Notes: generated from the letters alone by a model not told the origin. Positions 4,770-43,163 are shown, counted from the stretch's first letter. The stretch: 57,027 bases of DNA from Patellaria atrata CBS 101060 (GCA_010093705.1 MU006102.1:671993-729019); one strand, 5' to 3'. Numbers and translations: made by a program.

Positions 4770-4994
4770 TTAATATATTTTTTAATTTATTTTTTACTCT
4801 TTTTAAATAATAATTATAATTATTAAAATTAAAATATAAAAAAATTAAAATAAAATTAAAATTATATTAATAATATAAAATATTATTAAATATTATAGAA
4901 TTTTTTAATAATTATTATTTTTATTATAATATAAAATATTAAAATAATAATAAAGTAATAAAATTTAATAAAAAAATTAAATAAAATTTATTAT
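4770..4994 (+). mobile_element. Fragment of Fot1/pogo-like DNA transposon family D (transposase 5' part)
   Basis: ~4873-4990 aligns with ~43551-43660 and ~51021-51120. Confidence 0.65.
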
Positions 4995-5619
4995 TATAAT
5001 AGAAGTCTATATTTATTAAAATAGAATTAAATAAGTCTAAAAACGCGTCTAGCTTTTCACTTAATATAGTTAACTATAAAGATAGGTTCGGTAAAATAAT
5101 AGAATATATATAATAAAGATATTTTAAGTTAACGGTATAATTTACTAACTTCTTAACTTCGGGTAATACTTATAATAAGATAAGACGTATTATATAGAAA
5201 TAGCGTAATAAGTGAAGTTAAGTTTAAAACCGTAATATCTAAATTTATAGATAAGATTAATAGTAAGAATAACTACGAAGAATCTAAATATATAAAAGAA
5301 AGACTATCTTTAAATATTCTTATTCTTTATAATTAATTTAATTATCTATACTTTAATTGTTCTAGTTATTTAGTTATTTAGTCGTTTCTCTCACGACTAA
5401 GACGTTTATATATTTAAACGTCTAAGTTATATAGTATCTTTTAATCGTTTTAGTTATTTAGTCGTTTAGTCGTTTCTTTTACAACTAAAACGTCTAAATA
5501 TCTAAATATCTAAGTTACGTGGTTCGTTACTACTCGTTTTACCTATAATTCTTTTAAGTGATTTTCCTCTTTTTCCTTTACTCGTTATCTATATATTCCT
5601 ATAACTTATAGTTATAACA
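4995..5619 (-). repeat. 3' LTR of C0-left (625 bp, subtype beta)
   Basis: Matches 31101-31717; ends ...gttataaca and is followed by the PPT complement. Confidence 0.88.
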
Positions 5620-5734
5620 TTATTCTTCCCCTTCTTAACTCTTATTCTAAGAGTTTATTTCTTTTATTTAAGTATATAATAAACGTATCGCCTATCTATT
5701 AAATCGTATATACCTCTTTTTTCTTTCTTCTAAG

Positions 5735-6370
5735 ATACTAAAAGCTAAATCCCGTCTAGTCCATCGTTAACGTTACGCTATCTATATTACTTTATACGGT
5801 CGTCTTATATTAACTTTTTATTCCGTTTATTATTATTCTTTTTATTCTTATATTATCGATATCCTTTCTAGTTTCTATTCTAAGTGTCTCGCTCGTGGTT
5901 TAAAATACGATCTCGTGGTGATATAAAAGAATTAGGGTAAGCTCGACGCTTTAAAAGTAAAGCTTCGTTCTAAGCTTAACGCTACTAAAGATGCCGAAGA
6001 GGAAACCACTTATCTCCGTAAGGAGGTAGTTCTAAAGGCGATACGTCTTTAATAAGAGGCGATTCGTATTTAATATAAAGTAATTTATACCGCTCGTGTT
6101 TATTCTTATCGACTTTATTATAAGCTTCTTTTACTTAAGCGTAAAGAGACGGAAATATCTTATCGTAAGCTTAATTCTATCGAGAAACTTAAGACTTTAG
6201 AGCGAGTAACTAAAGAATAGCGAGCTTCCTTAGTCGCTTCTTTTTCCTCCGTTATTATATCTTCTTCTAGTTAGTCTAATTTAAATTTCTCTATCTTTAA
6301 GAGTCTAGAATTCCCTAATTTTAGCGATAAAACTATTTAAGTTTTTAATTATAATTTATTAAGTGTTTAA
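5735..6370 (+). pseudogene. Antisense accessory ORF of family C (long allele, 212 codons): Zn(II)2Cys6-like motif + coiled coil, RIP-inactivated
   Basis: Single frame without frameshifts; stops only at TAA/TAG that revert to CAA/CAG/TGG; de-RIP reading MPKAK..PCSxCRRSFxSCVVDISSGFCSECLARGLKCDLVVTQKDW.KLD. Confidence 0.75.
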
Positions 6371-8288
6371 GTGGTTTCTATATATTATCTATATATCTAT
6401 AACCTTTCTATTTTACTAAATACTTATATTAATCGTTTATTTATTATAGGTCTAAGATTTATTCTATTTTATAGATATCTTCTTCTTCGAGTTTTATAGA
6501 TCGTGTTTAGAGTTTAGTATTAATATATACTAGTTTTAGGAGTAATATATAGAAAATTAGATATATCTTTATTTCTTATAATAATTTTAACTTATAATTA
6601 ACTTTTCCTTTAACTTATTTAATTTTAAAGAGGTCGATTTTCTTATAATCTAGTTTCTTATTAGGTCGTTTTATTTTAAGATTTTTCTATAATAAGTAAA
6701 CTTTATCCCTCTTTTTAAAAATTAGTTCTAGCGATTTATATTAATTACTATATTTTATAGTTCTTATTATCTAGAAAGCTATATTTTATAATAATTATAT
6801 ATATAATTTTTTAATTTATTTAACTTTTAACGTTATTTTTTATAAAATACTTTATATTATTCTAGACTTTTAATATACTTTAAACTTAAAACTATAATTT
6901 ATATAGAAGGATAAAATCTTTATAATATCGAATTTCGCGTTATTATATATAAATTATATTATTAGTAATAGCTTTATCTAGTTATTCTATTAATAATTTA
7001 TATAATTATATAAATATTATTTTAGAGACTAGTTTATTCTCTTAGTCTAACTATTTATTTATAGATAAAAGTTTATCGATAACTTATAATTTATCTCTAA
7101 ACTTTATATTAAGATTTATTAAAATATTAATATAAATAGCTTATCTCGATTTAAAATAATTTCTTTAAATATCTAATAATTTATTAATACTATTTTTATT
7201 ATTAATATTATTATTTATAATACTATTATTATTATCTTTATTAGTATAAAATAAATAAACTTTATTAATCGTTTTATAATAATTAATATTATATTATACT
7301 TTACTTTTATTATTAAATCTTTAAATCTTAATAGACTTATAATAAAGTCTATTATTATTAAGTTTTACGCTCGTTTTAATAGTTTAATATATTATATTTA
7401 TCTATAAGATATATATTTTACACTTTTATTCTATATATAATTATTATATTTTAAGATAATTTATTTTATTATACTTCTTATTTTTAAGAAGTAATAATTC
7501 TTTAAAATTCTTTTTAAAATTTTATTAATATCTTAGTAATTATATATTAATATTTTATAGATCTTTTTAGTAAAAGTCTTTTATAATATTATTAATATAT
7601 ATATAAATTTATTATATAACTATATTTCTTAAATTATTTATATTACTTTAAAATTATTATTCTTTTAAAACTTCTCTATTATACTATTCTTTTAATAAGT
7701 ATTATAAATTTATTATTCTTTTATAAATTTAATTATTAATATTATAGTTAATCTTAATTAATTATAAATAATCGCGTTATTTTCTTTTTTTAATATTATA
7801 TTATATATTAATTTTATTTTTTTTAAATAATTAAATCTTCTATTTATAATATTAATTAATTTATTTTTAACTTCTAATTTATAGAATATTTTAAAGTTAA
7901 AAGATATAAGTGTTTTTATTTATTTTACTTATTTTCGATTTAACTTCTTTATTATAAAAAAGTTTATTAGATTTTAATAATCTAATTAAACTTTTATAGT
8001 ATATTTAAATTCTTTAAGATATAATCTTTATTATTTAAATATATCGATAATCGTTAATAGCTTTTTATTATATATATTATAATTTAGCTTTATAGCCGTA
8101 AATTTTTATAAATAAAAAGCTATTAAATATAATTATTCTTTTTTATCTAATTAACTTATATATATATCTAGTATATAATTAAATATATTAGTTTTTAGTA
8201 CTATTAATTTCTCTAAATTAAATATAATTATAATAGATATTATAATAAACTTCTTTTTAAATTTATTAAATACTTTCTATATCTTTAT

Positions 8289-8923
8289 TATAACGGGAGT
8301 CTATACTTATCGAGATAAAACTAGATAAGTCTAGAAACACGCTTAGCTTCTCACTTAACGTGGTTAACTATAAAGGTAAATTTAATAAAGTGATAAGATT
8401 TATATAATAAAGGCACTTTAAGTTAACGATATAACTTATTAACTCCTTAACTTCGAGTAATATTTATAATAAGATAAGACGTACTATATAGAAATAATAT
8501 AGTAAGTAAAGTTAAGTTTAAAACTATAATATCTAAATTTATAGATAAAATTAATAGTAAGAATAATTATAAAGAATCTAAATATATAAGAGAAAGATTA
8601 TCTTTAAATATTTCTATTCTTTATAACTAATTTAATTATTTATATTTTAATTATTCTAATTATTAGTTATTCTTTATAACTAACGCGTCTAGCGATTATT
8701 ATCTAGTCGTTTTAGTTATTAGTTATTCTCTATAATTAACGCGTCTAGCGACTATTACTTAATTATTTTAGTCGTTAATCGTTCTTTATAACTAGCGTGT
8801 CTAACGATTATTATTTAGTCACGTGATTCTCTATTATTTATTTTATCTATAGTTTCCTCGAGTGATATTCCTTTTTTCCTCTTATTTATTATTTATATAT
8901 TTCTATAACTTATAGTTATAATA
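8289..8923 (-). repeat. 3' LTR of C1 (635 bp, subtype alpha, three 56-bp internal units)
   Basis: Starts tataacgggagtc; followed by PPT complement ctatcctcccttttctt. Confidence 0.88.
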
Positions 8924-9038
8924 CTATCCTCCCTTTTCTTAACTTTTATCTTAAGAGTTTATTCCTTTTACTTAGATATATAATAGATATATCGTCTATC
9001 TATTAAGTTATATATACCTCTCTTCCCTTTTTTCTAAG

Positions 9039-9587
9039 ATACTAAAAGCTAAACCCCGTCTAGTCTATTATTAACGTTACGCTACCTATATCACTTTATA
9101 TAATTATTTTATATTAACTCTCTATTTCGCTTATCGTCGCTCTTTCTATTCTTATATTATTAATATCTCTTCTAGTTTCTATTCTAAGTATCTCGCTTAT
9201 AGTTTAAAATATAATCTCGTGGTAATATAGAAAGACTAAGATAAACTTAATACTTTAAAGACTCGAACTTATTCTAAATTAACTACTATTAAGGACGAAT
9301 AAGAATCTCTTTAAACTCGTGTATATTATCTTTATAAGTAGCTTCGTTCTCTCGAAGAGAAAAAGTTTAAGATATCTTATTATAAGCTTAATTCTATTAA
9401 GAAATTTAAGGCTTTAAAGCGAGTAATTAAAGAATAGCGAGCTTTCTTAATCACTTCTTCTTTCTTTATTATCGTGTCTTCTTTTAGTTAGTTTAGTCTA
9501 GATTTCTCTACCTTTAAGGATCTAGAATTCCTTAATTTTAGCGATAAAACTATTTAAGTTTCTAATTATAGTTTATTAAGTATTTAA
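9039..9587 (+). pseudogene. Antisense accessory ORF of family C (short allele, 183 codons), Zn(II)2Cys6-like + coiled coil, RIPed
   Basis: Same start and end context as 5735-6370; 87 nt shorter with frame preserved. Confidence 0.75.
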
Positions 9588-12500
9588 GTGGTTTCTACGT
9601 ATTATCTACGTGTTTATAGTCTTTCCATTTTACTAAATACTTATACTAACTATTTACTCGTTATAGGTTTAAGATTTATTCTATCTTATAGATATCTTCT
9701 TCCTTAAATTTTATAGATTATATTTAGAGTTTAGCGTTAATATATATTAGTTCTAGAAGTAATATATAAAAAACTAGATATATCTTTATTTCTTATAATA
9801 ATTCTAACTTATAATTAACTTTTCCTTTAATTTATTTAATTCTAAAAGGGTCGATTTTCTTATAGTCTAGTTTTTTATTAAGTTATTTTATTTTAAGATT
9901 TTTTTATAATAAGTAAACTTTATCCCCTCTTTTAAAGATTAGTTTTAACGATTTATATTAATTACTATACTTTATAGCCCTTATTATTTAGAAAGCTATA
10001 TCTTATAATAGCTATATATATAATTTCTTAATTTATTTAGCTTTTAACGTTACTTCTTATAATATATTTTAAACTATTCTCGGCTCACGATATACTTCCG
10101 ATTTAAAACTATAGTTTATATAGAAGGGTAAAACCTTTATAATATCGAATTCCGCGCTATTATATATAAATTATACTATTAGTAATAGCTTTATCTAATT
10201 ATTCTATTAGTAATTTATATAGTTATATAAGTATTACTTTAGAGACTAGTTTATTCTCTTAATCTAGCTATTTATTTATAGATAAAAGCTTATCGATAGC
10301 TTATAGTTTACCCCTAAACTTTATATTAGAGTTTACTAAAATATTAATATAAATAGTTTATCTTAGTTTAAGATAATTTCTTTAAGTATCTAATAATTTA
10401 TTAGCACTATTTTTATTATTAATACTATTACTTATAGTGCTATTATCGTTATCTTTACTAGTATAAAGTAGATAAACTTTATTAGTTATTTTATAATAAC
10501 TAATATCGCGTTATACTCTATTTCTATCGCTAGATCTTTAGATCTTAGTAGATTTATAATAAAGTCTATCGTTATTAAGTCTTATACTCGTTTAGGTAGC
10601 TTAATATATTATATTTATCTATAAGATATATATTTTACACTCTTATTTCGTATATAGTTATTATATTTTAAGATAATTTATTTTATTATACTTCTTACTT
10701 CTAGGAAATAGTAATTCCTTAAGATCCTTTTTAAGGTTTTATTAATACCTTAGTGACTATATACTAGTGCTTCGTAGATCTCTTTAGTAAGAGTCTTTTA
10801 TAGTGTCGTTAATATATATATAAGCCTATTATATAGCTATATTCTTTAAACTATTTATATTATTCTAGAATTATCACTCTTTTAGAACTCCTCTATTATA
10901 TTATTCTTTTAATAGATATCACGAATTTATTATTCTCTTATAGATTCGATTATTAATATTATAATTAATCTTAGTTAATTATAAATAATCGCGTTATTTT
11001 CTTTCTTTAATACTATATTATATACCGGTTTCGTTTCTTCTAGATAGTTAAATCTTTTACTTATAATATTAGTTAATTTATTTTTAACTTTTAATCTATA
11101 AAATATTTTAAAGTTAAAGAATATAAGTGTTTCCGCCTATCTTACTTATCTTTAGTTTAACTTTTTTATCGTAAGAAAGTTTATTAGGTTTTAATAATCT
11201 AATTAAACTTTTATAATATACTTAAGTCCTTTAAGGTATAATCTCTATTATTTAAATACGTCGATAATCGTTAATAGCTCTTTATTATATACGTTATAGT
11301 TTAGCTTTATAGCCGTAAACTTTTATAAATAAAAGATTATTAAATATAGTCGTTCTTTCTTATCTAGCTAACTTATATATATATCTAGTATATAATTAGA
11401 TACGTTAGTTTCTAGCACTATTAATTTCTCTAGATTAAATATAATTAAGATAGATATTATAGTAAATTTCTTTTTAAATTTATTAAATATTTTCTATACC
11501 TTCTTTATTTAAATAAAGGTATTTTCCTTCTTTATTAATTTTAATAGCGGTGTTATTATCCTTAAGTACCTCTAGATAAACTTTTTATAATAGTTTATAA
11601 AGTTTAAGAATAATTATATATCCTTTATATTTTTTAATATTAGCTAATCTTAGATTATAGCTATCTTTTTTAAATCTACTTATATACTTTTAGTGGTAAT
11701 AATAAAGCCTAAAAATTCCATTTCTTTAATATAGAATTTACACTTATTTAGGTGTACTAGAAGTTTCTTTTCTCGTAATTTCGTTAATACTTTCTTTATA
11801 TACTCTTTATACTCTTTAAGCGTTCTATTTATATATACTAATATATTATCTAGATAAGTAGTTATAAATACGTCTAAATATTCTTTTAATATATAATTAA
11901 TCACTACTTAGAATATTACTAGAGCGTTAATTAAGTTAAATAGTATTATTATATATTTATATAGTTTAAACCTTATTTTTATAACTATCTTTCACTTTTC
12001 GCCTTTTTTTATTTTAATTTAATAGTAACTATCTTAGATATTAAATTTCGTAAACTATTTTACTTCTTATAATCTATTTTAGATTTCCGAGATTAAGGGT
12101 AATAGATATTTATTCTTAATTATAGTATTATTTAGTTATCTATAATCGATATATAATCTTAGCTTACTATTCTTTTTTAATATAAATAGAATCGGTGAAG
12201 TTATTAGGCTCTCGCTAGATCGTATATATTCCTTTTCTAAGTTAGTATAGATATATTCTTTAAGTGCTTTATATTATTCTCTTATTAACGGGTAAATTAG
12301 GCCGGGTCGTAATTTCGTACTCTTTTTTAACACTATTTTATAATCCTATATCTAATAATTTAGAAGTATAGTCGTTATATCTTCTTTAAATAAATCTTTA
12401 AACTCGTTATACTCTTTAAGTATCTTAGGTTCTTTAAAAACCTTTTTAACGTCTACTTTTCTAAGTTATATTACTCTTATACTTTTAGATTTATTTCTAT

Positions 12501-12950
12501 AAATCTTTATTATCTTATAATATAAAATATATTCTATAGATATACTAGCGTCCGTTTACTTAATATATCTTATTTATTTAACTCTATTCTTTTATAAGAT
12601 ATCTTAGTTAATTTAAATACTTTTTATCTTCTAGTTAATATTTAAATTTATTATTTATAATTAATCTATTTCTAGAATTATATTTATATCTCTAAGATCG
12701 ATTATAGAGATACGTTAAATAATTATCTTTTCTTATATATTAACTTCTACTAGTATAGTTTTAAAGTTAATTAGACCTTATTTATATCCTATTCCTTCAC
12801 TATTTCTTAATTATAGCGGGACTAAATTTTCTAATTTTATATAAAGTATACTTTTCTTCTCTACTTATCGAGATAAGATAAACGAATTAGTGGCGTTATT
12901 ATTAATTAGCGCTATTATTCTCTTACTATATATAGTAATATTTATTTAAA
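9400..12950 (-). pseudogene. pol: pol remnant of C1 (protease, RT, RNase H, integrase, chromodomain)
   Basis: ALI[DSG]ATNSFIS at ~12880-12915; LRL[CV]DYR[Q]LN at ~12130-12165; YLDN/D ORF 11680..11904; YLVKWK chromodomain at ~9590-9640; ends approximate. Confidence 0.8.
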
Positions 12951-13372
12951 GCGTTTTATTATTACTTTATAAAATTCTAAGGAACTTAGAAGTTATATTT
13001 CTTAATCGTTTCTATTTCGAGTAGCTTAGTAGTTTTTTATATAACTATAAACTAGATAACTAGATTCTATATATATAGTCTAGTATAATTTATTATATTA
13101 GTTATAATATAATTCTTTATAATATTCTTCGCACTTTAATTTCTAATATTCTCGTTTAATAACTATATTATAACTTAAATTACTTTTAATTTCTACTCTT
13201 TATCTTTATACGGTATAGTAATCACACTATATTCCTCTAATCGCGTACTATTTAAAGTCTATTATATTATATTTAATAATATATTCGGGTATTTTCTTAT
13301 TATTTTATAGTATTTCTATCTTCTATAAAAATATTTTTATCTTATAAAACTTTTTCTTTAATTCTTTATAAT

Positions 13373-13570
13373 TATAATAATATTATAGATTATTATTTCC
13401 TATTTTCCTTTATTAATAGTAGTCGCGTTAAGGTTCTACTATTATATATTTAATATTAGTAGATTATATAATTATAATTTCTTTTTTTCTTAACTTAATC
13501 TCTTTATACTATAGTTAGGTTATACTAGTTATAATTTAATTCGATTCTTTATAACTATTATATCGTTATA
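13373..13570 (+). repeat. 5' LTR of B (198 bp)
   Basis: Direct repeat of 26624-26821, differing by transitions. Confidence 0.92.
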
Positions 13571-13621: not shown

Positions 13622-13860
13622 CCTAGTGTTTAAGAGTATTAAGACTAAAGACTATAAGTTTATCTAGTATTTAAGAGTATTAGAATTAACGATAATAAGA
13701 GAAACTCGATATTTAAAAGTATTAAAACTAAAGACTATAAGTTTATCTAGTACCTAAAAGTATTAGGACTAATAATAATAAAAGAAACCCGATACTTAAA
13801 AGTATTAAAACTAAAGATTATAAGTTTATCCGACACTCGAAAGTATTAAGACCGATAATA
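13622..13860 (+). repeat. ~83-bp tandem repeat (~3 copies) in the B leader
   Basis: actataagtt-type anchor at 13651, 13734 and 13817. Confidence 0.85.
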
Positions 13861-15285
13861 AATAAACTATTATAAAATAGTTAAACTATTAGGAATAATA
13901 ACGCGAGAAGATATTATAAAAGATACTAGATTTATAAATTATCTTATTATAGAGTATAATATTAAATTAAAAGGAAAGAGTATTAAATATAATCGGCGTT
14001 TCTTAAAAGTCGCGCTAATTAGTGTACCGATTATAGAGGAAATATTTAAGAAGGACCTTTAAGATATACTATAATAATATAAGAATAAATATAAGCGGTA
14101 AAAGCTAAAATATAAGATTATCTTAAGTTAAGAATATATTAATAGTATTAAAAATATTAAATAAGTACTATAAGATAATCTAAATAACTTTATAGAAGAA
14201 TATTTATAAAGCCTATTACGACTAATAACCCGCGAAGAGTAAATAAAGATACTAGCCGGGATAACTAGATAGTATTATAAAGAGATAATATAGAAGATAG
14301 CTATATATAAAGTTAATAAAAAGATTATAAAAGACCTTTAAAATAAGAATTAAGTTCTATATAATTAATTAACGCGAGTACGGGTTAACTAAAACTAAAC
14401 CGACTATATTATAATAGAAGATATAATAGAAAACGCGAGAACCTTAAAGAGTAAAAATAATAAGTTAAGTAAGTTTCCCGACTTATCTATATTAATCGAT
14501 AGTAAAAATTTAATTTACTAAATATAAAAGAGTTAATTAATAGATAAACTCGAGTATAATACTAACTAGTATTTAACGGATAGAGATTAAGTAGTATATA
14601 TTAAGATAAAGATAGATAGATAATTAATTAATTAGATATATTTATATCTAAAGTTAAAAATAGAAGATAATAAAACTATTATATTTAAAAATTTATTTAA
14701 ATTTATTTACTAGATTTATAAAGACTTTAATAAATATCTTAAGGCTAAAGATAAACTAAGAAAGTTAAACTAGAGTTATCTAATAAACTTTACGAAATTT
14801 TAGTTAGACTTTATTTATTTAGCTATAAAAGCTAAGTTATTTAGAGACTAATAGAAAGAAGAGATCTATAAAAAGCTATATAATTCTCTATAATAGATTA
14901 TAATATTAGACGTGATAAACGATAATATTAATTTTAAAGAGTTCTATTAACGAGTAACGCTTTAAGTATAAGGCCTAGAGAAGTAAAGCTAGAAGTTAAA
15001 AGAGTAATAAGAAAAATAATAAAAGCGTAAGATTATTAGAGTAGCTTTAAATATTACGGTAATAAGTAGAATTATAATCTAGCGATTAAATAAAGTTTCG
15101 AGTATAGCTACTTCTCTATAATAATTAATAGACTAGAGTACTATAATAATTTAAAAGTTCACGGGAAATTGCTTTAACTACGGTAAACCGGGGCACCGAT
15201 CGGCTAATTACCGAGTATAAAGAAAGATAGTCGAGGTTAAGTCGGCTTAAGCGGAGTAAAACGAGTTAGGCTAAGAATTAGAACC

Positions 15286-18613: not shown

Positions 18614-21600
18614 ATAAAGACTCTATATTAAAGCTAATAGTAGAAGTATTAATAATATTAATTAGCGATCCGATATTAGAAAAGCTATTCACGATACTAT
18701 ACTAAATCTTAAAAAACGGAATCGTAATATAGCTTAGGGCCCTAATTAATATTAGAGCTTAAGAGTATATTTTACTAAATAAGAGATAGCTACCCGCTTT
18801 AAAATAATACCTTAGAATTAAAGTTAGAAAGATAGACTAAAAGATCGAAGTTAATATCTTTAATAATTCGAAGATAGTACTAATTAATTAAGTATTTAAG
18901 GCGAGCCTTATAATTAAAGAATAAAGATAGCTAATATCGATTATAGTAATAAATATAGGCTATAATAATATACTTATAAGTAAAGAGTAGTTCTCTAAAA
19001 CTAATAGTTTATTTAATTATAAGCACTATCGGATTATTTAGCCGAAATAGGCTACTATAGTTAAAGACTAGTAATGAGATATCGTGATTTCGAAGAGCGA
19101 GCTATAAATCTAAATTAATCTATAGCACTAATTCGATATAAAACGACGAGATAAAGCTATCGATAAACGAGAATATAATCGATAGAAAGTATTAATTAAC
19201 TAGAGAAGGAAACCGTAACTATTCTAATAGAAGTAACCGAGTTTATAAGTTAAGAATATCGACTTTAATCTCTAAAAGATAAAATTAGAACTATCGAATC
19301 TAATAAAGAGAGAGACGCCGGAACTCTCTAAAAAGCTAAAGCCGAAGCTAAGTAAGCGGGTTAATATTACCGGAATCTATATAAATATCTATTTAGTTAA
19401 CGGAGAAAACTACCTAAGAAACGTAAAGCGTAAAAACGTCGTTATAAATACTATAAGTCTATACGAGATTAACTCCTTAATATAAGATCGACTCTCGGAA
19501 GACGAAAACCCTCTAGATAAAGACGAAGACGCTTATAGAGCGATAATCTACGAAAAGTTACCTAAGGAATACTATCACTTAGCCTATATATTCTCGAAAT
19601 CTATATCCGATAAGCTACCACCGCTTAGAGAAGGCGTAGACCATAATATAGTACTAAACTAAGATAGTAATCTTACTACTAGCCCCTTATATAACATGCC
19701 TATCGAACACTTATAGCTAGTAAAAGACTACCTAGAAGAGTATCTCTAGAAGGGGTTTATCGTTCCGAGCGAAGCACTATACGCGTCTCCAGTGCTATTC
19801 GCCAAGAAGCTAGGAGGTGGCTGGAGATTTTGCGTCGACTATCGGAAGCTAAATAGCATCACGAAGAAGGACAAATACCCGTTACCATTGATCGAAGAGA
19901 CACTGACACGACTGCAGCGAGCCAAGATCTTTACCAAACTAGACGTAAGATAAGCATTCTACCGGATTCGGATGAAAGAGATAGCTGAAGACCTCACCAC
20001 ATTCCGAACGAGATACGGATCGTTTAAATATAAGGTACTACCGTTCGGGTTATGTAATGGGCCGGCCTCGTTCTAACGGTTTATTAATAAAGCACTCTTC
20101 GATTACTTGGACGACTTCTACACGGTATACGTCGACGATATCTTGATCTACTCTACGTGCCCGTTAGAACATAAGATTCACGTCACCAAAGTATTAAAAG
20201 CATTGGCAAAAGCCGGCCTGCAAGCCGATATAAAGAAGAGCGAGTTCCACGTAACGAAAACCAAATTCCTGGGGTTTATTATCAGCACCGACGGAATAGC
20301 AATGGACCTAGAGAAGACTGAGGTAGTTCGAAACTGGAAGCTACCCACGAGTGTAAAAGGCATTCTATCGTTTAACGGATTCTGCAACTTCTATCGGAAG
20401 TTCCTTGAGAAGTTCGGTCGGGTAATACGGCCGCTGACAGTTCGGACCCGAAAAGGAGCATGGCAACCGCTCGGGCCAAAAGAAGAAGAAGCATTCGAAA
20501 GAGCCAAAGAACTAATTCTATCGGATCAAGTACTAGCGCACTACGACCCTCTACTCGAGACAAAAGTCGAATCCGACTGTAGCGACGGAGTTGCTGCAGC
20601 AGTCCTATCTCAGCTTCACGGAAAGATCTGGAGACCGGTTGCCTTCTGGACAAAGACGTTATCAGAAACGGAACTAAGGTACGAAATCCACGACAAAGAG
20701 ATGTTGGCCGTAGTGAGAGTACTAGCCGAATGGAGAAGCATGTTGGTAGGACTACAGCAAGTCCCCTTCACTGTGATCACTGACCATAGAGCACTGGAAT
20801 ACTTCACCACGAAACGGTTACTCAATGCTCGACAAGCCCGATGGAGTGAAACCCTATCCGATTTCCACTTCCGAATCACGTACCGGCCCGGAGCCCAGAA
20901 CGTCGTCGCGGACGCGCTTTCACGTAAGCAAGAGGACCTGAAGACGGCAAAAGATAAAGACATTGCGGCACGGACCCAGGTGCTAATCGACCCGAATATA
21001 ATGGTAGCACCCCTCCAGTTCTTTACAGAACAACAACCACTGTCTAAGAAGACATCTCAGAACAGCAGGAAACGTGTAGCCTCCATGGGGAAGGCGGCAG
21101 AGAAGTACGCCCCGAACCCAGGACCCGGGGCCCGGGTTATGGTGGCCGAGGTGGCGATAACCGAGCCTTCGCTAATGCAGGAGACGGAGGGAGTCGAAGC
21201 TCAGGACCCGGGGCCCAAGGTAGCTAAAACCCCAAAAGGGAGAGACAACATGCCAAAGAAGTGTATTGACCCCGGCCCTGGGCCGGGGCCAATGCCCACT
21301 CACTCCACAATTCCCACCACTGAAGAAGAAAAGGAGGTCAGGTTTCAAGAGGAAGAAAGGGAGGATATACCCACAGATTCGGAGCGGCATGTCCAAAACG
21401 AGCTCGGTCGGAACCAGAAACCGTTAGCAACATACCTACTAGTGGACCGGATCTTAGAAGTAAACAGGAAGCATGACTCTCTATCGGTATACCGAAAGCA
21501 AGCCGAAGCCAAGGAGAGACACTGGGAACTACAGAACGGCCTACTCGTCAGATTTAGTAGGCTTATAGTTCCAGACGTGGATAACCTCAGAACGTATCTG

Positions 21601-22928
21601 ATACGAGACGTACATGACGCGCTGGTTACAGGACATCCAGGAACGAAGAAGACGAGAGAGCTAATCCGAGCACGATACTATTGGCCCGGCTTAGTGGCCG
21701 ACGTGGAGAGATACGTCCGGAACTGTCACACTTGTCGCCGAACGCATATACCAAGAGACAAAACCCCTGGTTTACTGAAATCACTGCCGATAGGAGACAG
21801 ATATTGGCAACACGTCTCTTTCGACTTCAAATCGTTCCCCAAAGACACACACGGTTTCGAAATGGCGTTCGTAGTGGTAGATCGACTAGGAAAGAGAGCG
21901 ATCTCGCTTCCCTGCACCAAAGATATCTCAGCTAAGATAGCTGCAAAGCTGTACTACGAACACGTATGGCGAATATACGGCACACCGGAAACGGCGACAT
22001 CAGATCGTGGCCCACAGTTTGTATCCGCGTTCACGGACGAACTTTGCAAACTGACAAAAGTGAAACAGAAGCTNNNNNNNNNNNNNNNNNNNNNNNNNNN
22101 NNNNNNNNNNNNNNNNNNNNNNNNNNNNNNNNNNNNNNNNNNNNNNNNNNNNNNNNNNNNNNNNNNNNNNNNNNNNNNNNNNNNNNNNNNNNNNNNNNNN
22201 NNNNNNNNNNNNNNNNNNNNNNNNNNNNNNNNNNNNNNNNNNNNNNNNNNNNNNNNNNNNNNNNNNNNNNNNNNNNNNNNNNNNNNNNNNNNNNNNNNNN
22301 NNNNNNNNNNNNNNNNNNNNNNNNNNNNNNNNNNNNNNNNNNNNNNNNNNNNNNNNNNNNNNNNNNNNNNNNNNNNNNNNNNNNNNNNNNNNNNNNNNNN
22401 NNNNNNNNNNNNNNNNNNNNNNNNNNNNNNNNNNNNNNNNNNNNNNNNNNNNNNNNNNNNNNNNNNNNNNNNNNNNNNNNNNNNNNNNNNNNNNNNNNNN
22501 NNNNNNNNNNNNNNNNNNNNNNNNNNNNNNNNNNNNNNNNNNNNNNNNNNNNNNNNNNNNNNNAAGCACCGATGGACCCGTTACCCGGACAACGGCTAGA
22601 ACCACCACCGCCGATCGAAATAGACGGCGAGCCCGAATATGAAGTAGATAAGATCCTGGCAAGCCGCATCTCTCGCGGCAAGTTACAGTATAAAGCAAGT
22701 TGGATCGGATACGACCCTGACGAGACGTGGTATCCGGCTCGTAACTTCATCAGAGCACCGCACAAGCTCGAAGAATTCCACGATCAGAGACCAGCCGACG
22801 CCGGACCACCAGTCCGACTTAAAGAATGGCTCCAAGCCTTTAGATCCGAGACAGAAGTAGAGCCGCACGACGATGACGATATAGCCGAAAAGAAGGGGCC
22901 TATACAGATTTTGAGACGTCGCAAATAG
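18600..22928 (+). pseudogene. pol: pol of A2: RIPed protease and RT N-terminus, then an open RT (YVDD)-RNase H-integrase-chromodomain stretch (20107-22928, across an N gap)
   Basis: Track ORFs 20107..22599 and 21966..22928: VYVDDILIYS; ESDCSD...YEIHDKEMLAVV; HDALVTGHPG...CHTC; SFDFK...SDRGPQF; EYEVDKILASRISRGKLQYKASWIGYDPDETWYP; upstream in-frame stops at ~19951 and ~20074. Confidence 0.95.
22074..22563. other. Assembly gap inside the A2 integrase
   Basis: 490 Ns; the frame offset across the gap is probably a gap-size artefact. Confidence 0.98.
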
Positions 22929-26821: not shown

Positions 26822-28571
26822 ATAATACTAGTAATCTATACTATATTTATAATCTTCCCACGTTACTACTATATATCCCGCGTGAATTAGCGCCTAATAA
26901 TATCGTCTATATTTAAGTTTATCTATATAACTAAAACTATTATATTTTTTATAGTCGTCTATTAATGGTTCGAGTTCTTAGTTCTTTTCGAGTACTTTTA
27001 TTTTATCTTCGTAGGTTTTATATCCTCTTATTTAGCACTCGTTTTTAGGTAAATATATATATATAAAGTTTTAATTCTTAAACTTTACTATAACCTTCTA
27101 CTATTTATAGTATAAGTAGTTATCCTCTTTATATTATATTTATCGAAAGATTAGATAGTTCTCTACTCTTAATATAAGGTTTAATTACTATTCTTCGATA
27201 ATTATATTAATATTAAGTTTAGGTTCGATCGGCTCCTAATTTTAGAATTCTTATTTAAGCTAATATTATTATTCTATAATCTAGTATATAAGGTTTAGTC
27301 TATTAAATATTTATACTCTAATCCTTTAACCTTAGTTCTATACTAGATATTTTAATACTATATACACGTGTACGTTTCTATATATCTAATATTATTAGTA
27401 GTTTAAATATTATCGGAATATCTCCTCCTTTAACTAATTTCCTATTATTAGGAACGGTGTTAGTAACCTACTTATCTCTATTTAATAGAGTAGCGGTGTT
27501 TCTTTAATCTTTTCTTCTTCGAGCGATAAGACTAGTGATAATAATATTAGATATATAACTCTAAATTATATACGTTAGTTATATCGCGAGGGTGGTTACG
27601 TCTTTTATAGATAGTCTCTCTTAAAGTATTCTACTTCTTTATATTATAGATATATTTTATTTATAAAGTGTTCTTTTTCTTTTTAGATAAATTATTATTA
27701 TTTCTTTAACTTCTTTTATTTTATCTATTATAGTCGGTTAAGATCTATTAAGTCTCCTTAATCTTATTTATTTATAGCTTTTATTATCTTCTTTCTATAC
27801 TTAACTATAATATTCTTCCGTCCTCCCTTTTTTTATCTATATTTATATAACCTATTATCTATTCTAACTATTAAGATTACTATATTCTATATAGTTATTA
27901 GTCTTTTATAATAAATTTACTTATCCTTTACTTCTTCCTTTAAACCTTAATAAAAGGCTATTATTAGTGGTTTATTAGGCTAACTTAATATTAATACTAT
28001 CTATTAGAATATAGTTATATACTTTAAAGTTAATCCTTTTTATCTAAGTTTTTAAAGCTTTCTTTTAGCTACTTATTATTTGTCGATTTCCCTAAAAACG
28101 TTTTTAAGTATTTCCTTAAACTTTAGAAACGACGCGAAGATTTTACTTATTTTATCTTTTTAATCTTCTTTATTATTCTTAAGGTAGTCCCGTATAATAG
28201 ATTCGAACTATTCTAAAGTATCTCCTTTAAGGTACGTTAATATATCGAGTATATATTCACTATCGTCTATTAACTCTATTCTTTTATAATAGATCCTTAT
28301 TTAGGTTAAGAATCCTCTTAACTCGTCTTATTTACTATCGTATAATACGGGTTCTTTAACTTTTACGATCCATTTTTATAGTGATAGTAACTATATAGTA
28401 AGCTACTTAAGCTAGTCCCTAAGTTCTTAGACTATCTCTTTATTTTCGAGTTCGCTAATACGTTTATATAACGCTTAGATATATTCTTTATCCGTCTTCG
28501 TATTAGCTATAGTTAACGATATCGTGTCTAGGTCTATTATACGCTTTCCTACTACGTGGTAGTTATAATAT

Positions 28572-29150
28572 TATAACGGGAGTCTATACTTATCGAGATA
28601 GAATTAGATAAGTCTAGAAACGCGTCTAGCTTCTTATTTAACGTGGTTAACTATAAAGGTAGGTTTAGTAAAGTGATAGGATTCGTATAATAAAGGCACT
28701 TTAAGTTAACGATATAACTTGCTAACTCCTTAACTTCGGGTAATACTTATAATGAGATAAGACGTACTATATAGAAATAGTGTAATAAGTGAAGTTAAGT
28801 TTAAAACCGTAACATCTAAATCTATAGATAAGATTAATAGTAAGAATAACTACGAAGAATCTAAATATATAAGGGAAAGACCGTCCTTAAATATTCCTAT
28901 CCTTTATAGCTAATTTAGTTGCCTATATTCTAGTCGTTCTAGTCGTTAGTCGTTCTCTACGACTAGCGCGTTTAGCGACCACTATCTAGTCGTTTTAGTC
29001 GTTAGTCGTTTTCTACGACTAGCGCGTCCAGCGACCACTATCTGGTCACGTGATTCTCTATCACTTGTTTCACCCGTAGTTCCCCCGAGTGGTGTTCCTT
29101 TCTTCCCCTTACTCGTTATCTATATATTCCTATAACTTATAGCTATAATA
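28572..29150 (-). repeat. 5' LTR of C1 (579 bp, subtype alpha, two 56-bp units)
   Basis: Matches 8289-8923 minus one 56-bp unit; least RIPed C LTR in the window. Confidence 0.9.
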
Positions 29151-31717
29151 ATAACTTAGATTACTTTTAATTTCTACTCTTTATCTTTACGCGGTATAGT
29201 AGTCGTACTATATTCCTTTAATTATATATTATCTAAAATCTATCGCGTTATATTTAATAGTTTATTTAATAGTTTCTCTATTATTTTTAAATACTTTTAT
29301 TTTCTATAAAAACATTTTTATTTTATAGAACTCTTCCTCTAATTCTTTATAATATTAGTAATCCGTATTATATTTATAATCTTTCTATATTACTACTATA
29401 TATCCCGCGTAGATTAGCGTTTAGTAATATCGTTTATATTTAAGTTTATCTATATAATTAAAACTATTATATTTTCTATAATCGTCTATTAGTGATTTAA
29501 GTTCTTAGTTCTTTTTAAGTACTTTTATTTTATCTTTATAGATTTTATACTCTCTTACCTAGCACTTGTTTTTAGATAAATATATATATATAAGGTCTTA
29601 ATCTCTAAATATTATTATAACCTTTTACTATTTATAGTATAAGTAGTTATCCTCTTTATATTATATCTATTAAAAGATTAGATAGTCTTTTACTCTCGAT
29701 ATAAGATTTAATTATTATTTTTCGATAATTATATCGATATTAAATTTAGATTTAATTAGCTCTTAGTCTTAGAATTTTTATTTAAACTAATATTATTATT
29801 TTATAATCTAGTATATAAGATTTAATTTATTAAATATTTATACTTTAATTCTTTAACTCTAATTTTATATTAGATATTTTAATATTATATATATATATAT
29901 ATATTTCTATACGCTTAATATTATTAGTAATTTAAATATTATCGAAATATCTTCTCTCCTAGCTAGTTATCTATTATTAGAAATAGTATCGATAGTTTAC
30001 TTACTTTTATCTAATATAATAGCGGTATTTCTTTAATCTCTTCTTCTTCGAGCGATAAGACTAGTAATAATAATATTAAATATATAATTTTAAGTTATAT
30101 ATATTAGTTATATCGCGAGGATAATTATATCTTTTATAGATAATCTCTTTTAAAATATCCTATTTCTTTATATTATAAATATACTTTATTTATAAAGCGT
30201 TCTTTTTCTTTTTAAATAAATTATCGTTATTTCTTTAATTTCTTTTATTTTATCTATTATAGTTAATTAAGATTTATTAAATCTTCTTAATTTTATTTAT
30301 TTATAATTTTTATTATTTTCTTTTTATATCTAATTATAATATTCTTCTATCCTCTCTTTTTTTATTTATATTTATATAATCTATTATTTATTTTAACTAT
30401 TAAAGTTACTATATTTTATATAATTATTAATCTTTTATAATAAACCTATTTATCTTTTATTTCTTCCTTTAAACCTTAATAGAAAGTTATTATTAATAAT
30501 TTATTAAGCTAATCTAATATTAATATTATCTATTAAAATATAATTATATACTTTAAAGTTAACTCTTTTTATTTAAGTTTTTAAAACTTTCTTTTAACTA
30601 TTTATTATTTATTAACTTCTTTAAAAACGTTCTTAAACGTTTCTTTAAACTTTAAAAACGACTTAAAGATTTTAATTATTTTATCTTTTTAATATTCTTT
30701 ATTATTCTTAAAATAGTCTTATATAATAAGTTTAAACTATTTTAAAGCGTCTCCTTTAAAATATATTAATATATTAAGTATATATTTACTATTATCTATT
30801 AATTTTATTCTTTTATAATAGATTTTTATCTAGATTAAGAATCCTTTTAACTTATCTTATTTATTATTATATAATACGGGTTCTTTAACTTTCGCGGTTT
30901 ATTTCTATAGTAAAAGTAACTATATAGTAAATTATTTAAGCTAATTCCTAAATTCTTAAACTATTTCTTTATTTTTAAGTTTATTAATATATTTATATAA
31001 TATTTAAATATATTCTTTATCTATCTTTATATTAGTTATAGTTAATAATATCGTATTTAGATCTATTATATATTTTCCTATTATATAATAATTATAATAT
31101 TATAACGGGAGTCTATACTTATTAAAATAAAATTAAATAAGTCTAAAAATATATTTAGCTTTTCACTTAATATAATTAATTATAAAGGTAAATTTAGTAA
31201 AATAATAGAATATATATAATAAAGACACTTTAAATTAATAGTATAATTTATTAACTTCTTAACTTTAGATAATACTTATAATAAGATAAGACGTATTATA
31301 TAGAAATAGCGTAATAAGTGAAGTTAAGTTTAAAACTATAATATTTAAATCTATAAATAAGATTAATAGTAAGAATAACTACGAAAAATCTAAATATATA
31401 AGAGAAGGACTATTTTTAAATATCTTTATTTTTTATAGTTAATTTAGTTATTTATACTTTAATTATTCTAGTTATTTAATTATTTCTCCTATAATTAAGA
31501 TATTTATACGTTTAAACGTCTAAATTATATAATATCTTTTAATTATTCTAGTCGTTTAGTCGTTTAATTATTTCTTTTATAATTAAAATATCTAAATATC
31601 TAAATATCTAAGTTATATAGTTTATTATTACTCGTTTTATTTATAATTCTTTTAAGTGATCTTCCTCTCTTCCCTTTACTTATTATCTATATATTCCTAT
31701 AATTTATAGCCGTAATA
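29151..31717 (-). mobile_element. Gypsy family C, copy C0-right (gag, leader, 5' LTR 31101-31717 subtype beta)
   Basis: Colinear with 13170-13372 + 26827-28571; LTR ends ...agccgtaata. Confidence 0.85.
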
Positions 31718-31774
31718 ATAAACTAAATATTTAATATAGAAAATATAGAATTAATATTATAATATATTATTATA
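31718..31774 (-). repeat. 57-bp terminal remnant of a family A LTR, interrupted by the C LTR
   Basis: Near-identical to the last 57 bp of 36208-36479 and 4498-4769. Confidence 0.8.
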
Positions 31775-39500: not shown

Positions 39501-42500
39501 TTAAATTAAGATAAAAGAAAATAAAAAATAAAAGATAATTATAAAAATAAAATTTAAATTATATAAATATATAATAATATTATTTAATTTAATTAATATT
39601 TTAATAATATTTTAAGTAATAATTTATTATATATTAAAAAAGTATTTAAATATATTTATAACTATTTATTTAGATAATATATTAATATATATAAATAAAA
39701 TACTTAAAAAGTATAAAAAATATATAAAGAAAATAATAAAAGAATTATAAAAAAAAAGACTTTTAATATATTTAAATAAATATAAATTCTATATTAAAGA
39801 AATAAAATTTCTAGACTTTATTATTATTATTAAAAATATATAAATAAATTTAAAGAAAATAATTATAATTAAAAATTAATTAATATTAAAAAATAAAAAG
39901 AATATATAATTATTCTTAAATTTTATAAATTATTATAAAAAGTTTATTTAAAAATATTTAAAAATAATAATATTATTATTAAAGTTAATAAAAAAGGAAA
40001 ATACCTTTATTTAAATAAAGAAAATATAGAAAATATTTAATAAATTTAAGAAAAAGTTTATTATAATATTTATCTTAATTATATTTAATTTAAAAAAATT
40101 AATAATATTAGAAATTAATATATTTAATTATATATTAAATATATATATAAATTAATTAAATAAGAAAAAATAATTATATTTAATAATTTTTTATTTATAA
40201 AAGTTTATAATTATAAAGTTAAATTATAATATATATAATAAAAAATTATTAATAATTATTAATATATTTAAATAATAAAGATTATATTTTAAAGAATTTA
40301 AATATATTTTAAAAATTTAGTTAAATTATTAAAATTTAATAAATTTTCTTATAATAAAAAAGTTAAATTAAAGATAAATAAAATAAATAAAAATATTTAT
40401 ATCTTTTAATTTTAAAATATTTTATAAATTAAAAGTTAAAAATAAACTAGTTAATATTATAAATAGAAAATTTAACTATTTAAAAGAAATAAAACTAATA
40501 TATAATATAATATTAAAAAGATAAAATAATATAATTATTTATAATTAATTAAGATTAACTATAATACTAATAATTAAATTTATAAAAAAATAATAAATTT
40601 ATAATATCTATTAAAAAAATAATATAATAAAAAAATTTTAAAAGAGTAATAATTTTAAAATAATAAAAATAATTTAAAGAATATAATTATATAATAAATT
40701 TATATATATTAATAATATTATAAAAAACTCTTATTAAAGAAATCTATAAAATATTAATATATAATTATTAAAGTATTAATAAAATCTTAAAAAGAATTTT
40801 AAGAAATTACTATTTTTTAAAAATAAAAAGTATAATAAAATAAATTATCTTAAAATATAATAATTATATATAAAATAAAAGTATAAAATAAATATTTTAT
40901 TAATAAATATAATATATTAAATTATTTAAATAAATATAAAACTTAATAATAATAAATTTTATTATAAATTTACTAAAATTTAAAGATTTAATAATAAAAA
41001 TAAAATAAAATATAATATTAATTATTATAGAATAATTAATAAAGTTTATTAACTTTATATTAATAAAGATAATAATAATAATACTATAAATAATAATATT
41101 AATATTAAAAATAATATTAATAAATTATTAAATATTAAAAGAGATAATTTTAAATAAAAATAAATTATTTAAGTTAATATTTTAATAAATTTTAATATAA
41201 AATTTAAAGATAAATTATAAAATATTAATAAATTTTTATCTATAAATAAATAATTAAATTAAAAGAATAAATTAATTTTTAAAATAATATTTATATAATT
41301 ATATAAATTATTAATAAAATAATTAAATAAAACTATTATAAATAATTTCATTTATATATAATAACGCGAAATTTAATATTATAAAGATTTTACTCTTTTA
41401 TAAATTATAGTTTTAAATTAAAAGTATATTATAAATTAAAAATAGTATAAAATATATTATAAAAAATAATATTAAAAATTAAATAAATTAAAGAATTATA
41501 TAATTAATTATTATAAAATATAATTTTCTAGATAATAAAAATTATAAAATATAGTAAATTAATATAAATTATTAGAATTAATTTTTAAAAAAGAAGATAA
41601 AATTTATTTATTATAGAAAAATTTTAAAATAAAATAATTTAATAAAAAATTAAATTATAAGAAAATTAAATTCTTTAAAATTAAATAAATTAAAGAAAAA
41701 GTTAATTATAAATTAAAATTATTATAAAAAATAAAAATATATTTAATTTTCTATATATTATATTTAAAATTAATATATATTAATATTAAACTTTAAATAT
41801 AATTTATAGAATTTAAAGAAAAAAATATTTATAAAATAAAATAAATTTTAAACTTATAATAAATAAATAATTAATATAAATATTTAATAAAATAAAAAAG
41901 CTATAAATATATAAATAATATATAGAAATTATTTAAATATTTAATAAATTATAATTAAATACTTAAATAGTTTTATTATTAAAACTAAAAATTTTTAAAT
42001 CTATAAAATTAAAGAAATCTAAATTAGACTAATTAAAAAAAGATATAATAATAAAGAAAAAAAAGATAATTAAAAAAATTTATTATTTTTTAACTTTTTA
42101 TTTTAAAGTTTTAAGTTTTTTAATAAAATTAAATTTATAATAAAATATTTTAAATTTCTTATTTTTAAAAAAATAAAATTATTTATAAAGATAATATATA
42201 TAAATTTAAAGAGATTTTTATTTATCTTTAATAATAGTTAATTTAAAATAAATTTAAACTTTTAAAATATTAAATTTATTTTAATCTTTTTATATTATTA
42301 TAAGATTATATTTTATATTATAAATAAGATATTTAAAATAAAAATTAAAAGAAATATTAATAATATAAAAGTAAAAAAAATAATAATAAATAAAATAAAA
42401 AGTTAATATAAAATAATTATATAAAATAATATAAATAATATAATATTAATAATAAATTAAATAGAATTTAGCTTTTAATATTTTAAAAAAAAAGAAAAAA

Positions 42501-43163
42501 AATATATATAATTTAATAAATAAATAATATATTTATTATATATTTAAATAAAAGAAATAAACTTTTAAAATAAAAGTTAAAAAGAAAGAGAATAATATTA
42601 TAACTATAAATTATAAAGATATATAAATAATAAATAAAAGAAAAAAAGAAATATTATTTAAAAAAAATTATAAATAAAATAAATAATAAAGAATTATATA
42701 ATTAAAATATTAATTATATTAATTATATTAATTATAGAAAATAATTATTAATTAAAATAATTAAATAATAATTATTAATTATATTAATTATAGAGAATAA
42801 TTAACGATTAAAATAATTAAATTAATTATAAAAAATAAAAATATTTAAAAATAATTTTTCTTTTATATATTTAAATATTTTATAATTATTTTTATTATTA
42901 ATCTTATTTATAAATTTAAATATTATAGTTTTAAATTTAACTTTATTTATTATATTATTTTTATATAATATATCTTATCTTATTATAAATATTACTTAAA
43001 ATTAAGAAATTAATAAATTATAATAATAATTTAAAATATTTTTATTATATATATTTTATTATTTTATTAAATTTACTTAAATAATTAATTATATTAAATA
43101 AGAAATTAAATTTATTTATAAATTTATTTTATTTTATTTTAATAAATATAGACTTTTATTATA
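36519..43163 (+). mobile_element. Gypsy family C, copy C3 (5'-truncated gag-pol, extra ORF, PPT, 3' LTR 42596-43163), extremely RIPed
   Basis: Reverse complement of the C1 internal sequence without the B insertion; YLD[D]IL at ~39667; PPT aagaaagagaataa at ~42582-42595. Confidence 0.85.
41933..42481 (-). pseudogene. Third copy of the family C antisense Zn2Cys6-like ORF (short allele, 549 bp)
   Basis: Same length and end contexts as 9039-9587 on the opposite strand; heavily RIPed. Confidence 0.6.

Follow-up and report, generated by a model that had tools for sequence, protein, structure and literature searches.

Repeat-induced point mutation conceals a probable antisense accessory gene for a Gal4-like protein in a Patellaria chromovirus

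In a 57,027-nt stretch of the Patellaria atrata CBS 101060 genome (GCA_010093705.1, MU006102.1:671993-729019; the whole stretch is hereafter called the window), copies of a Gypsy-type chromovirus that were heavily mutated by repeat-induced point mutation (RIP) carry three degraded reading frames on the strand opposite to gag-pol. We find these frames, designated copies A, B and C (Table 1), to be homologous to small intact proteins, and consider it probable that they are copies, killed by RIP, of a true accessory gene that belongs to one Dothideomycete chromovirus clade and encodes a Gal4-like regulator. The parts of this reading do not all carry the same confidence. That the antisense frame represents a real protein gene borne by a transposable element (TE) is almost certain; that its product adopts a zinc-binding Zn2Cys6-type fold is probable, judging from domain profiles and structure models; whether the protein is a sequence-specific DNA-binding regulator is an evenly poised question; and the placement of its promoter in the 3′ long terminal repeat (LTR) is offered tentatively, at somewhat less than even odds.

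Results

The antisense frames decode into intact proteins

A HMMER profile was built from the three read-through translations, with stops written as X, and scored against 1.84 billion representative proteins. It returned eight matches, the best of which (P0001; E 7.1e-20) is an intact protein of 174 aa that opens with precisely the six-Cys motif deduced in a preliminary description of the window by reverting TAT and TAC codons to Cys codons. All six positions are indeed Cys in the intact proteins, arranged as C-x2-C-x6-C-x8-C-x2-C-x6-C. Within Patellaria atrata CBS 101060, P0001 has seven close paralogues of 127–175 aa whose frame is intact, and an eighth paralogue of 84 aa is truncated at its N-terminus.

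At the level of single codons, codons 25–183 of copy B align without gaps to the intact protein P0010 (158 aa), with which they share stop and length, and 156 of the 158 codons are RIP-compatible, that is, explained by C>T or G>A changes only; in 1000 shuffles, the mean was 31.8 compatible codons and the maximum 48. So close a match fits a window from the species of these intact proteins or from a very near one. All eight internal stops of copy B within this stretch lie opposite Q (six) or W (two). Copy C, which like B matches this short isoform, has all 11 internal stops of the corresponding stretch opposite Q (six), W (two) or R (three) of P0010. Copy A is matched by a long isoform, P0009, against which 141 of 154 aligned codons are RIP-compatible, including 47 of the first 50. 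Since A pairs with the long protein, and B and C with the short one, the 29 codons by which the gene in copy B is shorter than that in copy A reflect a natural in-frame isoform difference, and the indels between copies are likewise in frame.

RIP is recognised by a TpA/ApT ratio above 0.89 and a (CpA+TpG)/(ApC+GpT) ratio below 1.03, its C>T and G>A transitions depleting CpA and TpG. Around the antisense gene, GC content drops to 22–26% in a heavily RIPed, AT-rich block, and the two indices over 4991–8290 are 1.31 and 0.095, respectively. By these indices, and by the 156 of 158 codons that transitions explain, the copies in the window have undergone RIP, and all three copies of the antisense gene are dead.

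Features internal to the frames would not have sufficed for this conclusion. The three frames translate as described before, with internal stops that are TAA or TAG throughout and with a single surviving Cys codon, the TGT at 5885 that encodes the fifth Cys of copy A; the other five positions of copy A and all six of copies B and C read TAT or TAC. TAA and TAG as the only stops are expected of any RIPed DNA and are hence not diagnostic, and the plus frame holds 10 stops as against 13–30 in the other five frames, a small margin. The [C/Y] spacing pattern occurs four times in the six frames of the window, namely in the three copies and in one unrelated match at 44869 (minus strand), and local shuffles contained it at a mean of 0.38 per window, with at least one match in 32 of 100; taken alone, it is weak evidence and within chance. 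A Pfam scan of the RIPed translations gave nothing meaningful (best BUD31, E 0.47; COG6_N, E 0.052) and no Zn_clus match. The unrelated pattern match and the shuffles are what could be cited for the notion that the frames are a chance pattern, a Tyr-rich translation of AT-rich RIPed DNA. This notion is refuted by the profile match and by a count of RIP-compatible codons far beyond the shuffle maximum, and its probability is close to nil. By sequence comparison it is homology, not spacing or stops, that lifts the antisense frames above chance.

A multi-copy protein family of Dothideomycetes

With a profile of the intact members, 78 proteins were recovered at E ≤ 1e-3. The named genera among them (Patellaria, Acidomyces, Watsoniomyces, Zopfia, Lepidopterella, Cladosporium and Botryosphaeria) are all Dothideomycetes, and the gene is multi-copy in several genomes, with eight copies in one Patellaria atrata genome and eight in Acidomyces. 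In the ESM Atlas, neighbouring Ascomycota clusters comprise 140, 122 and 62 members, a finding that we regard as a lead only. The preliminary description had reckoned with unmutated copies that might show Tyr, His or Arg at the Cys positions, or might lack an open frame. Across 81 family proteins, the six columns contain only Cys, Tyr (nine proteins, a RIP-type change) or gaps in fragments, and the frame is open in the Patellaria atrata paralogues as well as in relatives that share only 30–45% identity. The RIPed members in other genomes imply that the antisense gene is repeated there, too.

In a 45-member alignment, Cys15, Cys24, Cys27 and Cys34 are invariant, and conservation reaches 90% or more at Cys5 and Cys8. 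The spacings Cys2-Cys3, Cys3-Cys4 and Cys5-Cys6 are (6,8,6) in 34 of the 46 members with six Cys and (6,8,7 or 8) in three more. For Zn2Cys6 domains the consensus is CX2CX6CX5-12CX2CX6-8C; P0001, P0009 and P0010, the intact counterparts of the window copies, have the spacing 2-6-8-2-6 and, as far as sequence can tell, possess the six-Cys arrangement of such a domain.

Family members are mostly 150–220 aa long. After the cluster they have a near-invariant linker of CDLVVT type, which includes a conserved Trp; next comes a long stretch rich in heptads, with motifs of RLRKQL and ASIEELE type, and the C-terminal part is an acidic tail rich in Ser and Pro in which aromatic residues are conserved. 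At the other end, many members begin 24–26 residues earlier with 'MPK...', an optional basic extension. The start proposed for copy A, an upstream ATA at 5735 derived from ATG, fits this extension, but the annotated intact paralogues start at the second Met. Directly before the ATA lies a pyrimidine tract (5712–5734) ending in ..CTAAG; it resembles a 3′ splice acceptor, and a spliced leader from the LTR would be conceivable.

A probable divergent zinc cluster and a predicted long helix

The AlphaFold2 model of P0010, computed with the 45-sequence alignment, reached a mean predicted local distance difference test score (pLDDT) of 84.5. Two short helices (residues 6–10 and 25–30; pLDDT ~88–93) lie at the two CxxC motifs, a single 74-residue helix spans residues 40–113 (block-mean pLDDT ~93–99), and the acidic tail is disordered and of low confidence. 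The order of zinc cluster, coiled coil and Ser-rich acidic tail put forward earlier is thus supported by both the family alignment and this model. When the model was compared with the PDB by Foldseek, the 20 rows among ranks 1–26 were all Zn2Cys6 DNA-binding domains, all of them weak matches; they comprise PUT3, GAL4, LEU3, Pho7, PPR1, HAP1, LAC9, Cep3 and AlcR. Root-mean-square deviations (rmsd) were 1.8 over 30 columns for GAL4 (1aw6) and 2.0 over 32 for LAC9 (1cld), and head, linker and coil together align over 56–73 columns with the DNA complexes of PUT3, GAL4, LEU3, PPR1 and HAP1. The Fungal_trans middle region was not detected in Pfam scans of family members. On these models, the head of the antisense protein is likely, though not proven, to be a divergent Zn2Cys6-type module.

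Position of the gene, and a metagenomic relative

In copies A, B and C, and in one locus outside the window (L001), the gene occupies the aORF-3R position: inside the element, past the pol domains, before the polypurine tract (PPT) and 3′ LTR, and on the opposite strand. It starts ~105–115 nt from PPT and 3′ LTR; the ~115 bp stated previously was measured as 115 nt, with the LTR edge at 5619 in A and 8923 in B. Its last 44 nt overlap the end of the chromodomain tail to tail (6327–6370 in A, 9544–9587 in B).

L001 was the one confirmed locus among 594 pattern matches in a metagenome scan. It is un-RIPed (GC 51%, TpA/ApT 1.01), and reads as follows: the antisense gene (ATG at 2005), ~104 nt, a purine tract (PPT) on the other strand, the putative LTR, and gag (Retrotrans_gag, E 2e-9; zf-CCHC, E 3.8e-8). 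The order of gene, PPT, LTR and gag fits a collapsed assembly and a tandem array of elements alike. In the window, the sequence at the inner end of the LTR is TGTTATAA, a RIP-type derivative of the start of the L001 LTR.

The antisense gene of L001 contains a predicted 49-nt intron (GTCCGT..CTGAC..TAG), the excision of which joins T|GG into the conserved Trp codon and restores the frame; the window lineage of the gene is without intron, and several database 'proteins' of the L001 lineage read through the intron or start inside it. An intron in antisense orientation escapes the splicing of sense genomic RNA and can therefore persist through retrotransposition. Its predicted presence in the L001 lineage supports a separate antisense mRNA.

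Upstream of a TATA-like TATTTAAG box, the putative L001 LTR contains GTGATCGCAA as four tandem units, together with no fewer than five additional GATCGC/GCGATC motifs, the repeats being candidate enhancer or factor-binding sites. The LTR holds only three CGG/CCG pairs, one CGG-N5-CCG and two CCG-Nx-CGG.

Anatomy of the host element

The element family was delimited by self-comparison of the window and by motif searches as Gypsy/chromovirus, with copies A and B on the minus strand. A chromovirus is marked by reverse transcriptase (RT), RNase H and integrase in the same frame as a C-terminal chromodomain. The host element qualifies as one: in copy B the RT motifs share a frame with the chromodomain motif, and domains of RT, RNase H, rve and Chromo (PF00078, PF17917/17919, PF00665, PF24626, PF00385) are present in the best pol homologues. 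Copy A (4854–8291) matches copy B (8149–11508) in the self-comparison, and copy C belongs to a duplicate of the B/A junction, 38093–44239 matching 13421–7191 with 76.6% identity.

Table 1. Features of the antisense gene and its host element; coordinates refer to the window unless L001 is named
Feature	Coordinates	Strand	Remarks
Antisense gene, copy A	5735..6370	+	long isoform, RIP-dead, 9 internal stops; second-Met start 5807
Zinc-cluster region, copy A	5819..5908	+	Cys codons 5819, 5828, 5849, 5876, 5885, 5906
Antisense gene, copy B	9039..9587	+	short isoform, RIP-dead, 9 internal stops; second-Met start 9111
Antisense gene, copy C	41933..42481	-	short isoform, most degraded, 12 internal stops; second-Met start 42409(-)
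3′ LTR, copy A	4991..5619	-	inner edge TGTTATAAC on minus strand; outer boundary approximate, from homology to B 8286-8923
PPT-like polypurine tract, copy A	5620..5641	-	directly inside LTR; read from sequence
Pol remnant, copy A	6327..8285	-	5′-truncated; integrase and chromodomain
3′ LTR, copy B	8286..8923	-	LTR edge at 8923
Polypurine tract, copy B	8924..8945	-	read from sequence
Gag-pol remnant, copy B	9544..13421	-	RT motifs 12153, 11856; chromodomain ~9639-9544; all one frame
Additional LTR copies	28569-29153 and 31098-31720		from self-comparison
Putative LTR, L001	1443-1900		~458 bp; begins TGTTACA, ends CA; placed from its ends only
Predicted intron of antisense gene, L001	2201-2249		49 nt; predicted from sequence

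Further features of the window were noted in passing. The LTR of copy A contains a tandem duplication of 83–88 nt at 5347–5517, and three tandem 83-nt units lie at 13629–13877, near the upper end of copy B. Between 31000 and 53000, ~20 kb (mainly ~36–53 kb) have a GC content of 2–5%, compared with 22–30% in neighbouring RIPed elements. A second chromovirus family (20302–22928, plus strand; RNase H, integrase, chromodomain) is almost un-RIPed, with GC ~50%, and is broken by an N run at 22074–22563; another N run spans 806–920. When the six-frame translated window was searched with the hidden Markov model of the accessory gene, only A and B were matched, and nothing in the second chromovirus.

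Alternative explanations

Several observations weigh against the interpretation of the frames as copies of a gene for a Gal4-like regulator, and the first group concerns the zinc cluster itself. The Pfam Zn_clus (PF00172) scan that had been suggested as a check comes out in favour for P0001, a narrow pass with 22.0 bits at a gathering cut-off of 21, but not for P0010, which stays below it with 20.3 bits; no more than seven of 45 members reach E ≤ 0.01, so that the family as a whole is borderline. In nine of the 46 six-Cys members, Cys2 and Cys3 are separated by 8 or 13 residues instead of 6. Foldseek gave no match in the PDB at E ≤ 0.001 (best E 0.08), VIA-align Z scores peak at 4.1 (HAP1 1pyc: rmsd 2.2 over 39 residues), and a profile search of PDB sequences yielded coiled-coil noise, with PUT3 at E 0.94 and LAC9 at E 1.4. 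The borderline scores and the variable spacing are what one might see if the element encoded a real protein that is no transcription factor, and rather serves as a tether for integration complexes, as a copy-number repressor, or as a binder of RNA or cDNA. The linker and the RLRKQL and ASIEELE motifs, which lie outside the Zn_clus match, would also suit such a protein, as would the L001 LTR, in which CGG/CCG pairs number only three and the repeats are of GATCGC type. We nevertheless regard a role of this kind as unlikely, if well worth keeping in mind, given that the order of head, linker and coil aligns with that in Zn2Cys6–DNA complexes and that the acidic tail with its conserved aromatics resembles what we take to be an activation domain.

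Resemblance to the N-terminal module of host factors raises a different possibility, namely that in a single event the element lineage acquired part of a host Zn2Cys6 factor, which it carries as a passenger without function for the element; accessory open reading frames (ORFs) of LTR elements often arise by capture, according to extracts of two papers (PMC7264820, PMC5408684). A functionless passenger is hard to reconcile with a frame that stays open, with Cys that remain invariant and with motifs that are conserved down to ~30% identity across several Dothideomycete genera. The in-frame indels, and a lineage that acquired or kept a frame-preserving intron, also count against it, and no long host factor is found among the close sequence relatives, in a search that did not extend to the 'longer' length class. 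We hold this explanation to be improbable.

The second group of observations concerns the opposite strand. In L001, a pol-sense frame (1941–2537, minus) is open for 198 codons across the entire antisense gene and ends shortly before the PPT; the database pol models P0106 (106 of 211 identities, 50%) and P0099 carry a corresponding tail; and codon-order shuffles of the antisense gene leave the pol-sense register open in 64% of cases over exon 1, but in just 2% over exon 2. Coding on the sense strand as well is therefore a possibility. The earlier placement of the gene 'between pol and 3′ LTR' is borne out in A, B, C and L001 insofar as the gene follows the chromodomain, but may be too simple in view of the open L001 frame: the antisense gene may lie within a long pol tail instead of a non-coding spacer. 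In the window, the end of pol is hidden by RIP: with P0010 encoded on the opposite strand, none of the minus frames of copy B contains a stop that would be unavoidable. The stretch of ~600 nt in question (L001:1941-2537; window 9111–9587 and 5807–6370, minus) may be either dual-coding or a by-product of composition.

Carried further, the open L001 frame, the tails of the two pol models and the rarity of an open exon 2 in the shuffles could mean that pol-sense, with a long C-terminal pol tail, is the only coding strand, and the antisense frame open as its by-product. This is very improbable. Six invariant Cys, a Pfam match and a confident Zn2Cys6-like model all belong to the antisense product, whereas the sense tail is of low complexity (R, Q, E, S, P) and shows no conservation in its middle part when L001 and P0106 are compared. 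A second minus frame of L001 is open for 145 codons, and two open frames out of three point to a composition effect. Moreover, the 49-nt intron shifts the sense register relative to intron-less lineages, so that a sense protein would not be homologous on both sides of it; and an open pol-sense frame does not exclude its counterpart, as both strands could be coding.

The last point concerns context: outside the window, the association with a TE comes from the single locus L001, in which the LTR is putative. A search for pol models gave none that its source names as Patellaria, most of the matches carrying no name.

Discussion

What might an element of this kind do with such a protein? If the frames are indeed remnants of a gene for a Gal4-like regulator, the antisense protein would be a miniature Gal4-type factor, whose Zn2Cys6-like head would bind DNA, whose long helix would dimerise as a coiled coil, and whose acidic tail would recruit the transcription machinery. 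Translated from an antisense transcript of its own, which would start within or close beside the 3′ LTR, the factor could act on host promoters or on the LTR of the element itself, and might thereby tune element expression. In its widest form, this reading would make a widespread ascomycete chromovirus clade 'complex' retrotransposons, with their own Gal4-type factor encoded in a separate antisense unit (containing an intron in some), binding to LTR repeats or host promoters, and dual-coding over the 3′ end of pol. We put this forward as a speculative extension that has more odds against it than for it.

To our knowledge, LTR retrotransposons are usually thought to depend wholly on host transcription factors. 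If true, a Gal4-like element protein would give the elements their own handle on transcription, as in complex retroviruses; it would mark the first known case of a fungal retrotransposon encoding a sequence-specific regulator, and would be a functional parallel to HBZ and Tax of deltaretroviruses. It would also account for small 'Zn(2)-C6 domain' proteins, present in multiple copies, which are annotated as host genes and inflate counts of fungal transcription factors. On the practical side, decoding RIPed DNA through C>T and G>A changes can recover real genes that ORF finders overlook.

An antisense accessory gene in this position is already known; its zinc-cluster identity is without an earlier report that we could find. 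In Boty elements of Botrytis and Sclerotinia, an antisense gene, brtn, lies between pol and the 3′ LTR (Zhao et al. 2011, Virology 417:248, as described in extracts of PMC8365987, PMC7264820, PMC4227169 and PMC5987419), a precedent overlooked in the preliminary description, according to which chromoviruses encode only gag and pol. From these descriptions, Boty is likewise a Gypsy element of fungi that carries a chromodomain, and its additional gene has the same position and orientation as the one described here. In line with a tail-to-tail arrangement, a Monilinia transcript is reported in an extract of PMC5987419 to match both a chromodomain-bearing Pol and BRTN. The two systems differ in their hosts, which are Leotiomycetes for brtn and Dothideomycetes for the present gene. 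No named Botrytis or Sclerotinia protein occurred among the 78 family matches, a word-index search that does not prove absence. Literature searches, among them one on Zn2Cys6 domains in connection with LTR retrotransposons and antisense genes, retrieved no report of a zinc-cluster accessory gene, as judged by title or abstract, and neither an antisense gene nor a zinc-cluster gene is mentioned in the main texts of PMC3248453 and PMC10799480, which were searched by term.

Plants offer further cases. Antisense ORFs between pol and the 3′ LTR occur in Grande, RIRE2, Retand and PvRetro13, where, in the extract of PMC7264820 devoted to them, they are conserved within families and of unknown function. 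They share position and orientation with the fungal antisense gene; they differ in belonging to non-chromovirus lineages, and the descriptions in this extract mention no zinc-cluster domain.

With regard to the protein, the closest likeness is to Gal4, Put3, Ppr1, Hap1 and Leu3. The six-Cys spacing is common to both, and the modelled short helices at either CxxC motif, as well as the predicted coiled coil that comes after the linker, probably have counterparts in these factors. Compared with these factors, the antisense proteins are only ~150–220 aa long, multi-copy and transposon-carried; most fall below the Pfam cut-off, some have a Cys2-Cys3 spacing of 8 or 13, and the family has linker and coil motifs of its own.

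With regard to genetic layout, a counterpart comes from vertebrates. HBZ of HTLV-1 is a basic leucine zipper (bZIP) protein of a vertebrate retrovirus, for which the use of an antisense LTR promoter has been shown. The fungal gene is not homologous to it, and its antisense LTR promoter is putative. In concept, the two would be alike: each a dimerising regulator of DNA-binding type whose gene lies in antisense beside the 3′ LTR, at the 3′ end of a retroelement.

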